A stretch of DNA of 64,000 nt from Escherichia coli. Lineage in GTDB: Bacteria; Pseudomonadota; Gammaproteobacteria; Enterobacterales; Enterobacteriaceae. Location of the stretch: the NCBI RefSeq assembly GCF_003334385.1, contig NZ_QOWN01000001.1; one strand, written 5' to 3'. The notes beneath the pieces are model-generated. The model did not search any database. It had not been told where the DNA came from and saw nothing but the letters and a program-made list of their open reading frames with translations. This document shows positions 13,471 through 58,150 of this stretch, in pieces. Made by a program: the position numbers and the translations under genes. Numbering within the stretch: position 1 is the stretch's first letter; each line of letters starts with the position of its first letter.

Positions 13471-13760
13471 GGTTCTCTCCCTAAAAATCTGTCTGGCAGG
13501 GTAGCGATTTGTGCGCATTGTCACGATTGAGATTTTTTAAGGGGAGGGGAAATTGATAACTTGTAGTTATGTGAAATCGCTATTTTCTGTAGCAGAGATG
13601 CATTCTTCTGACTTCTTGTCTGAGAAAATGCATAAGAAAAAATAGGTTAAAACTGAGGGGGGAAAAGAAAGGTGCAATATTTAGCCATTGTGTTCACTGC
13701 ACCTGGACCTTGGCTTACGCATCGGGTGTCTCAATCAACAAAAAGAGTTTTTAGTTTCTG

Positions 13761-15669: not shown

Positions 15670-15795
15670 AGACGTTCCTGTTTATAAAAGGAGAGGTGGA
15701 AGGATTATAGCCATCGATGCCTTGTCAGGATAGGAATAACCGCCGGAAGTCCGTATAATGCGCAGCCACATTTGTTTCAAGCCGGAGATTTCAAT

Positions 15796-16512
15796 ATGCG
15801 TCCAGCAGGCCGTAGCAATAATCAGGTGCGTCCCGTTACCCTGACTCGTAACTATACAAAACATGCAGAAGGCTCGGTGCTGGTCGAATTTGGCGATACC
15901 AAAGTGTTGTGTACCGCCTCTATTGAAGAAGGCGTGCCGCGCTTCCTGAAAGGTCAGGGCCAGGGCTGGATCACCGCAGAGTACGGCATGCTGCCACGTT
16001 CTACCCACACCCGTAACGCTCGTGAAGCGGCGAAAGGTAAGCAGGGTGGACGCACAATGGAAATCCAGCGTCTGATCGCCCGTGCTCTTCGCGCGGCAGT
16101 AGATTTGAAAGCGCTGGGTGAGTTCACCATTACGCTGGACTGCGACGTGCTTCAGGCTGATGGTGGCACGCGTACCGCGTCGATTACGGGTGCCTGCGTG
16201 GCGCTGGTAGATGCGCTACAGAAGCTGGTGGAAAACGGCAAGCTGAAAACCAATCCGATGAAAGGGATGGTAGCCGCAGTTTCTGTCGGAATTGTGAACG
16301 GCGAAGCGGTTTGCGATCTGGAATACGTTGAAGACTCTGCCGCAGAGACCGACATGAACGTAGTGATGACCGAAGACGGGCGCATCATTGAAGTGCAGGG
16401 GACGGCAGAAGGCGAGCCGTTCACCCATGAAGAGCTACTCACCTTGTTGGCTCTGGCCCGAGGGGGAATCGAATCCATTGTAGCGACGCAGAAGGCGGCG
16501 CTGGCAAACTGA
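15796..16512 (+). CDS. rph: Ribonuclease PH, apparently full-length (238 aa)
   Basis: ORF track 15772..16512; start at [10 protein letters not shown]; frame runs uninterrupted to ...[14 protein letters not shown] and TGA at 16510-16512, a few nt before the pyrE attenuator hairpin. Confidence 0.9.
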
Positions 16513-16517
16513 TTTTT

Positions 16518-16548
16518 AAGGCGACTGATGAGTCGCCTTTTTTTTGTC
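16518..16548 (+). terminator. pyrE attenuator: hairpin aaggcgact-gatg-agtcgcctt followed by T8
   Basis: Stem-loop plus T-run read from sequence between rph stop and pyrE start; matches the known translation-coupled pyrE attenuator. Confidence 0.85.
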
Positions 16549-16577
16549 TGTAGAAAAGTAAGATGAGGAGCGAAGGC

Positions 16578-17219
16578 ATGAAACCATATCAGCGCCAGTT
16601 TATTGAATTTGCGCTTAGCAAGCAGGTGTTAAAGTTTGGCGAGTTTACGCTGAAATCCGGGCGCAAAAGCCCCTATTTCTTCAACGCCGGGCTGTTTAAT
16701 ACCGGGCGCGATCTGGCACTGTTAGGCCGTTTTTACGCTGAAGCGTTGGTGGATTCCGGCATTGAGTTCGATCTGCTGTTTGGCCCTGCTTACAAAGGGA
16801 TCCCGATTGCCACCACAACCGCTGTGGCACTGGCGGAGCATCACGACCTGGACCTGCCGTACTGCTTTAACCGCAAAGAAGCAAAAGACCACGGTGAAGG
16901 CGGCAATCTGGTTGGTAGCGCGTTACAAGGACGCGTAATGCTGGTAGATGATGTGATCACCGCCGGAACGGCGATTCGCGAGTCGATGGAGATTATTCAG
17001 GCCAATGGCGCGACGCTTGCTGGCGTGTTGATTTCGCTCGATCGTCAGGAACGCGGGCGCGGCGAGATTTCGGCGATTCAGGAAGTTGAGCGTGATTACA
17101 ACTGCAAAGTGATCTCTATCATCACCCTGAAAGACCTGATTGCTTACCTGGAAGAGAAGCCGGAAATGGCGGAACATCTGGCGGCGGTTAAGGCCTATCG
17201 CGAAGAGTTTGGCGTTTAA
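16578..17219 (+). CDS. pyrE: Orotate phosphoribosyltransferase
   Basis: ORF track 16563..17219; start at [23 protein letters not shown] (213 aa). Confidence 0.93.
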
Positions 17220-17226
17220 AGAAACT

Positions 17227-17250
17227 CGCCGGATGAAAAGTCATCCGGCG
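17227..17250. terminator. Perfect 10-bp hairpin (cgccggatga-aaag-tcatccggcg) between convergent pyrE and slmA
   Basis: Inverted repeat seen in sequence; likely bidirectional terminator. Confidence 0.55.
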
Positions 17251-24125: not shown

Positions 24126-24164
24126 CAGTATTCAGGTAGCTGTTGAGCCTGGGGCGGTAGCGTG
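24126..24164 (+). promoter_or_regulatory. JUMPStart element with ops site GGCGGTAG (24153-24160) in the waaQ operon leader
   Basis: cagtattcaggtagctgttgagcctggggcggtagcgtg read from sequence about 50-85 bp upstream of waaQ; ops is the known RfaH recruitment site. Confidence 0.8.
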
Positions 24165-26403: not shown

Positions 26404-27193
26404 ATTAAAAGAGCCGCTTGCCACACTTTGGCGTGGTAAAGATGCTTTTGCAGAGGTCAAAAAACTGAACGGCGAGGTCTTTCGTGAACTGGAGACTCGT
26501 CGTACATTACGCTTTGAACTGTCCGGGAAAAGCTATTTTCTTAAATGGCACAAGGGGACGACATTAAAAGAGATTATAAAAAATCTACTCTCATTGCGGA
26601 TGCCCGTTTTGGGCGCAGACAGAGAGTGGCACGCTATTCATCGCCTGAGTGATGTTGGCGTTGATACAATGAAGGGCATTGGGTTTGGCGAAAAAGGGTT
26701 AAATCCATTAACTCGCGCATCATTTATTATTACCGAAGATCTCACTCCCACAATTAGCCTTGAAGATTATTGTGCCGATTGGGCAGTCAACCCGCCTGAT
26801 ATACGTGTTAAGCGTATGCTGATCGCACGTGTAGCAACTATGGTGCGTAAAATGCATACTGCAGGGATAAATCACCGCGACTGTTACATTTGCCACTTTT
26901 TGCTTCATTTGCCATTTACTGGCCGGGAAGATGAATTAAAAATTTCAGTTATCGATCTGCATCGGGCACAGATACGTGTAAAATTACCGCGCCGCTGGCG
27001 CGATAAAGACCTGATTGGTTTATATTTCTCATCAATGAATATTGGCCTGACGCAAAGAGATATCTGGCGATTTATGAAGGTTTATTTTGGGATGCCTTTA
27101 CGCAAAATATTGTCTCTTGAACAGAATTTATTGAACATGGCAAGCGTTAAGGCCGAGCGTATTAAAGAGCGAACACAACGCAAAGGATTATAA
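26396..27193 (+). CDS. waaP: LPS core heptose(I) kinase
   Basis: 265 aa; kinase-like motif [11 protein letters not shown]. Confidence 0.92.
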
Positions 27194-55249: not shown

Positions 55250-55284
55250 GCCGGATGCGGCGTGAACACCTTACTCGGCCTATA
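55250..55284. repeat. REP element downstream of yibL
   Basis: gccggatgcggcgtgaacaccttactcggcctata matches the REP pattern. Confidence 0.7.
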
Positions 55285-55319
55285 GGAATGTGCAGAATCA
55301 CCCTGTAGATACTGTGTTC

Positions 55320-57949: not shown

Positions 57950-58150
57950 CCCGAGAGGGCTGGGGTGAGGCTTTTCCCTCACCCAAACCCTCTCCGTGAG
58001 GAGAGGGGCAGCGCCGGATGCGGCGTAAGCGCCTTATCCGGCCTACAAGAACGTGCAAATTCAACAAATTGTGATGCATCCTGTAGGCCTGATAAGCGTA
58101 GCGCATCAGGCAATTAACCCCACCTTCTCCATGTGGAGAGGGTGGGATTG
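57950..58150. repeat. Repeat mosaic in the mtlA-mtlD spacer: two REP elements in inverted orientation (58013-58047 and 58083-58111) flanked by ccctctcc/ggagaggg and gggtgagg/cctcaccc hairpins
   Basis: Read directly from sequence; REP copies match GCCGGATGCGGCGTAAGCGCCTTATCCGGCCTACA. Confidence 0.75.

Follow-up and report, generated by a model that had tools for sequence, protein, structure and literature searches.

The stretch of Escherichia coli DNA analysed here, 64,000 nucleotides long and called the window below, contains the junction of rph, which encodes RNase PH, with pyrE, which encodes orotate phosphoribosyltransferase. The features of this junction, with their coordinates in the window, are the following.

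15754..15759, + strand: TATAAT, a perfect hexamer that lies 37 nt before the start codon of rph (sequence reading only)
15796..16512, + strand: rph, full-length RNase PH, 238 amino acids plus TGA (open reading frame and translation)
16441..16443, + strand: codon 216 of RNase PH, ACC (Thr), which is ATC (Ile) in the rph-1 and the rph+ lineages of K-12
16462..16466, + strand: run of five G's (G5) in codons Gly223-Gly224, the site of the one-base rph-1 deletion (alignment to MG1655)
16481..16483, + strand: out-of-frame TAG, the stop codon of rph-1, not read in the window (translation of MG1655)
16510..16512, + strand: TGA, the wild-type rph stop codon, 5 nt upstream of the hairpin
16513..16517, + strand: T5 spacer from the rph stop to the hairpin, read directly from the sequence
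16518..16539, + strand: pyrE attenuator hairpin, an intrinsic terminator stem-loop (terminator scan and RNA folds)
16538..16545, + strand: T8 tract of the attenuator, whose first two T's are the last two bases of the stem
16578..17219, + strand: pyrE, orotate phosphoribosyltransferase, 213 amino acids (TIGR00336)
17227..17250, no strand assigned: G+C-rich hairpin with 10 pairs, 7 of them G-C, in the gap where pyrE and slmA converge (terminator scan)

The rph frame starts with the ATG at 15796-15798 and stays open, with no break, to the TGA at 16510-16512, and the open reading frame and its translation thus bear out the initial annotation, which had described an intact rph ending at this codon. 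The product is an RNase PH by its match to the NCBIfam equivalog TIGR01966 (380.3 bits for a cutoff of 141.5), in which residues 2-236 align to positions 1-235 of the 236 in the profile, and it also matches the RNase PH structure of P. aeruginosa (1r6l) with 352 bits. The rph interval has zero differences from the locus of the wild isolate 52F4, where rph is annotated as WP_001247097.1, and many isolates that were sequenced independently match the window with 100% identity over the 901-nt rph region. Upstream of the gene, the TATAAT at 15754-15759 is a candidate -10 element of an rph-pyrE promoter. A consensus promoter scan reported no promoter upstream of rph, and it missed this hexamer because there is no good -35 element at 16-18 nt from it.

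The spacing between rph and the terminator is very short. The stop codon had been placed about 6 nt before a hairpin at 16518-16539; the close spacing and the hairpin are both found, the latter by the terminator scan and by RNA folding, and the exact length of the spacer (TTTTT) is 5 nt. The arms of the hairpin, AAGGCGACT and AGTCGCCTT, enclose a GATG loop and form 9 pairs, 5 of which are G-C, with a loop of 4 nt according to the terminator scan, and the sequence TTTTTTG follows position 16539. The stem-loop is present in both the minimum free energy and the centroid folds of the intercistronic RNA, although the 86-nt intercistronic region taken alone does not fold unusually well (z = -1.24). 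A scan of the whole 64-kb window with Rfam matched no curated family at the attenuator; the element is described as the pyrE attenuator loop in PMC2784333. The next gene downstream of the hairpin and its U-tract, on the same strand, is pyrE, whose ATG is at 16578. Its product matches TIGR00336 with 240.6 bits (cutoff 106.8), and its length and position match those of the annotated pyrE genes of MG1655, C600, and 52F4. By its position, the hairpin at 17227-17250 is likely to mark the end of the rph-pyrE operon.

The initial annotation had contrasted this intact frame with the rph-1 frameshift of the laboratory strains MG1655 and W3110, said to truncate RNase PH and to weaken the expression of pyrE. 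Alignment, annotation, and translation confirm the first part of this claim. In a 4-kb alignment around rph, the window shows only two differences from MG1655: an indel in the G-run at 16462-16466, where the window has five G's and MG1655 four (G4), and a C/T difference at 16442. W3110 (NC_007779.1) has the G4 allele as well. One G is missing in MG1655 and therefore the frame shifts from codon 224 and a premature TAG is used; when translated, this frame ends with ...LLILLALARGESNPL (...ALARGESNPL*) after 228 residues, in agreement with the record of the strain, where rph is a 687-nt gene labelled 'truncated RNase PH' (228 amino acids). The end of this coding sequence, at 3815863 in MG1655, maps to position 16483 of the window. 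The distance from stop codon to hairpin is therefore 34 nt in MG1655 versus 5 nt in the window, while the intercistronic region from 16513 to 16600, with the hairpin and the T-tract, is identical base for base between the two. With its G5 run and 238 codons, the window does not carry the rph-1 allele (G4 and 228 codons in MG1655). An alignment to MG1655 had been set beforehand as the refuting check of the observation, which stands, since the region is not identical. The second part of the claim agrees with PMC9997739, PMC2784333, and PMC5933015, all of which cite Jensen 1993 and describe rph-1 as a frameshift near the 3' end of rph in MG1655 and W3110 that truncates RNase PH and lowers pyrE expression.

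We then placed the two alleles in a census of 5,426 complete E. coli genomes, using queries of 42-43 nt centred on the G-run, for which the 28-nt exact seed of megablast must span the run. The G5 allele is present in 5,245 genomes (about 97%) and the G4 allele in 169, and the remaining 12 fall outside both counts. Sixty of the G4 rows, sampled evenly down the list, look like K-12 derivatives by their name or by their chromosome size and the coordinate of rph, and include MG1655, W3110, J53, EMG2, and evolution lines of the BW25113 type. Longer queries of 92-93 nt, which combine the base at 16442 with the G-run and for which exact matches were counted, separate the haplotypes further. The allele of the window (C at 16442 with G5) is found exactly in 1,022 genomes, O157:H7 among them. 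T with G4 is found exactly in 167 genomes and T with G5 in 180, and roughly one K-12 laboratory genome in two is itself rph+; among the matches listed, those with T and G5 include C600, DH1, DH5alpha, DH10B, MC4100, BW2952, and NCM3722. A synthetic query for C with G4, i.e., rph-1 on the C haplotype of the window, had no exact match in the genomes of the collection. The intact rph frame is the norm of the species, with the frameshift occurring in this collection only on the K-12 haplotype. The pedigree given in PMC9997739, where MG1655, W3110, and EMG2 share rph-1 and WG1 and K-12 strains of the NCM3722 type are without it, agrees with this census.

The second difference in rph, at 16442, is a C in the window and a T in both MG1655 and C600, and replaces Thr216 by Ile216. 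Among the matches listed for the two alleles with T, only K-12-type strains are found. The T at this position thus behaves as a marker of K-12 that the window lacks, and Ile216 looks like a substitution private to that lineage. The change is probably neutral, since solved RNase PH structures vary at the aligned position and have Ala, Gly, or Glu there. We consider it unlikely that Ile216, present in every sampled K-12 lineage including the 'rph+' controls, alters the activity or the stability of RNase PH. If it did, the enzyme would not be truly wild-type in any K-12 strain, and the proper reference would be the Thr216 allele found in the window.

The arrangement of stop codon, spacer, hairpin, and T-tract is the one expected for UTP-sensitive attenuation, in which transcription coming from upstream of rph meets the intrinsic terminator ahead of pyrE, and the formation of the hairpin is set by the distance between the polymerase and the ribosome on the end of rph through UTP-dependent pausing (Bonekamp 1984; Jensen 1993, both as cited in PMC5933015 and PMC2784333). 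In the window, ribosomes would translate rph up to the TGA at 16510-16512, where a stalled or terminating ribosome would reach the 5' arm of the hairpin. At low UTP, RNA polymerase would lag in U-rich stretches with the leading ribosome close behind it, the ribosome would block the hairpin, and transcription would read through into pyrE. At high UTP, the polymerase would be ahead, the hairpin and the U-tract would form, and transcription would terminate before pyrE. If the cover of a ribosome ends ~12 nt after the first base of the codon in its A site, the footprint at the TGA would extend to about 16522 and cover roughly 16518-16522, over half of the 5' arm with its 9 nt. In rph-1, the missing G puts the stop codon 29 nt upstream (TAG at 16481-16483), where ribosomes would be released 34 nt before reaching the hairpin, with a cover ending about 25 nt short of it; termination would then be constitutively high and pyrE under-expressed, a defect that the window is predicted not to have. 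From this geometry, the expression of pyrE in the window should be normal and responsive to pyrimidines. The genetics of MG1655, as reported in the literature on this junction, follow the same logic: placing the rph stop codon nearer the attenuator loop restores the regulation of pyrE (PMC2784333), a recurrent 82-bp deletion does so too by bringing the stop nearer the attenuator (PMC2784333), and mutations in rph-pyrE are the most common target in the adaptation of this strain to glucose minimal medium (PMC5933015).

Other explanations of the locus have to be weighed against this one. The hairpin could be a constitutive terminator of rph, with pyrE transcribed from a promoter of its own and uncoupled from the translation of rph; the unexceptional fold of the intercistronic region and the failure of the consensus scan to report a promoter upstream of rph would both be compatible with such an arrangement. 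Yet the same scan finds no promoter in the 38-nt gap between the hairpin and pyrE either, and shifts of the rph stop codon, either by rph-1 or by the 82-bp deletion, do change the expression of pyrE according to PMC2784333 and PMC5933015, which makes an uncoupled pyrE extremely improbable. A different objection concerns the G-run itself, where the extra G might be a homopolymer error of sequencing or assembly in what is truly an rph-1 genome. All four indels that separate the window from MG1655 (at 13657, 16462, 47208, and 62673) are in homopolymers, a typical signature of long-read errors. The allele census leads us to reject this artefact at the G-run: five G's are the rule among the complete genomes, and the rph-1 deletion on the C haplotype occurs in none of them. 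Moreover, with five G's the encoded protein aligns to the RNase PH model from end to end, and an error of this kind would be at odds with the perfect identity of the rph region across independently sequenced isolates. The chance that the G is spurious is, in our judgement, very small.

A genuine rph+ allele could still come from a K-12 laboratory strain, be it a repaired derivative of MG1655 or a lineage that never had rph-1 (C600, DH1, DH10B, MC4100, NCM3722, WG1). The overall similarity is certainly of the kind expected for such a strain: the whole window aligns to MG1655 as one colinear block (3,768,346-3,832,343, on the opposite strand) with 99.959% identity, the same gene order, and the same waa cluster, and the combination of T with G5 is common, in the 180 genomes counted above. 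The differences tell another story. Over the 64 kb there are 22 single-nucleotide substitutions and 4 single-base indels relative to MG1655, all of the latter in homopolymer runs, with the substitutions (9 synonymous, 10 nonsynonymous, 3 intergenic) distributed over its length, and by this count the window does not belong to the K-12 lineage. C600, a naturally rph+ K-12 strain, differs from positions 1-49333 of the window at 17 sites, which are exactly those of MG1655 minus the rph-1 deletion. Since C600 equals MG1655 at all 17 sites, the K-12 lines share one haplotype and the window has another. This comparison rules out a repaired K-12, and the C at 16442, where both alleles associated with K-12 have T, also argues against any rph+ K-12 line. 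Finally, over its first 25 kb the window is 100% identical to CFSAN061762, PF9285, PSJ-23, and EC102, which are isolates from cattle, humans, and food and not K-12. Beyond this part, TB06053, 52F4, and other wild isolates score slightly above K-12, and 52F4, the closest over 14323-64000, differs by 14 single-nucleotide substitutions and 2 indels. None of the complete genomes in the collection is identical to the whole window, and the best ones over 25-64 kb differ by about 10 bases. We regard an rph+ K-12 origin as very unlikely. The initial annotation had proposed a different or a repaired strain background and had called for whole-window identities against K-12 and other E. coli genomes; with these at hand, the different strain is retained and the repaired one is not. 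The best explanation of the whole, to which we assign a probability of about 0.96, is that the locus is the ancestral, species-typical rph-pyrE operon junction with its UTP-modulated attenuator, for which the dependence on UTP and the pyrE phenotype come from the literature, and that the window derives from a close wild relative of K-12 within E. coli that has the K-12 type of LPS core, not from a repaired laboratory strain.

The genes of the lipopolysaccharide core are compatible with this assignment. The window had been said to carry K-12-type LPS core genes, and the colinear alignment of the waa region supports this, with the gene content and order of MG1655 from waaQ through waaL, together with waaC, waaF, and rfaD, and with the type-specific genes waaS, waaZ, waaU, and waaL all in place. 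The initial annotation had implied a tension between this core type and a wild-type rph, which is not real: at least 80% of the part of the window that holds the core region (25001-50000) is covered in 1,529 of the 5,426 complete genomes, and G5 is, as seen above, the state of about 97% of them. For comparison, at least 80% of positions 1-25000 is covered in 5,035 of these genomes; coverage drops at 25001-50000 because waa core types are known to be polymorphic. With about 28% of the complete genomes apparently carrying the K-12 core type, a waa cluster of this type is too widespread to identify a strain as K-12. An intact rph beside such a cluster is the common natural state and gives no evidence of engineering.

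The locus is already known, as are the rph-1 lesion and the mechanism of attenuation; all three have been textbook knowledge since 1984-1993. The observation made in the window is one of strain typing, i.e., that the DNA is not of the MG1655/W3110 lineage and, by the full comparison, not of K-12. It has the same genes, order, stop codon, spacer, hairpin, and T-tract as the E. coli rph-pyrE operon originally described (Poulsen et al. 1984; Bonekamp et al. 1984; Jensen 1993), without any difference from K-12 in the regulatory region, and it departs from K-12 in the coding region, where it combines G5 with Thr216 and K-12 has Ile216. The rph-1 allele of the K-12 W1485 descendants (MG1655, W3110, BW25113, J53, EMG2) affects the same G-run of the same locus and differs from the window by its four G's, the shift from codon 224 with the resulting ...ARGESNPL end, and a stop codon 34 nt before the hairpin. 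The rph+ allele of K-12 (C600, DH1, DH5alpha, DH10B, MC4100, NCM3722; WP_001247096.1) has G5, 238 amino acids, and the same distance from stop to hairpin as in the window; the only difference in its protein is at codon 216, which is ATC (Ile) in K-12 and ACC (Thr) in the window, as in WP_001247097.1 of 52F4. The leader-peptide attenuator of pyrBI in E. coli follows the same logic, in that UTP-sensitive pausing sets the distance of the ribosome, which blocks or permits the terminator hairpin. The pyrBI system uses a dedicated short leader peptide, whereas for pyrE a real gene, rph, provides the 'leader' with its 3' end.

Some further features of the window concern its divergence from other genomes. 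Among the 19 coding substitutions relative to MG1655, 10 are nonsynonymous, a high proportion in this pairwise comparison, as expected for very recent divergence or for changes accumulated in the laboratory on the K-12 side. In waaP, two nonsynonymous changes separated by 5 nt, at 26979 (Ala195Val relative to MG1655) and at 26984 (Val197Leu), are absent from K-12 and from the wild isolate 52F4. From 26 to 48 kb, eight further differences set the window apart from K-12 as well as from 52F4, among which are Asp329Asn in waaF, Asn109Lys in htrL, and Leu466Gln in gpmM. Single-base length differences from MG1655 occur in a G-run between dinD and yicG (13657), in a T-run between yibN and gpmM (47208), where C600 and 52F4 agree with MG1655, and in a T-run at the extreme 3' end of yibV (62673), where the window is one T shorter; these three could be real slippage or assembly errors.

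The only Rfam match in the 64 kb is a JUMPstart RNA element at 24126-24164 on the + strand (55.2 bits for a gathering score of 35). It belongs to the leader that precedes the waaQ operon, in the region of the small RNA RirA in the annotation of MG1655. Two REP-type palindromic elements at 55250-55300 and 58013-58063 (GCCGGATGCGGCG...CCGGCCTA) are 80% identical to each other, and it is probably because of these two that the query covering 39-64 kb matched a median of 15 places per genome.
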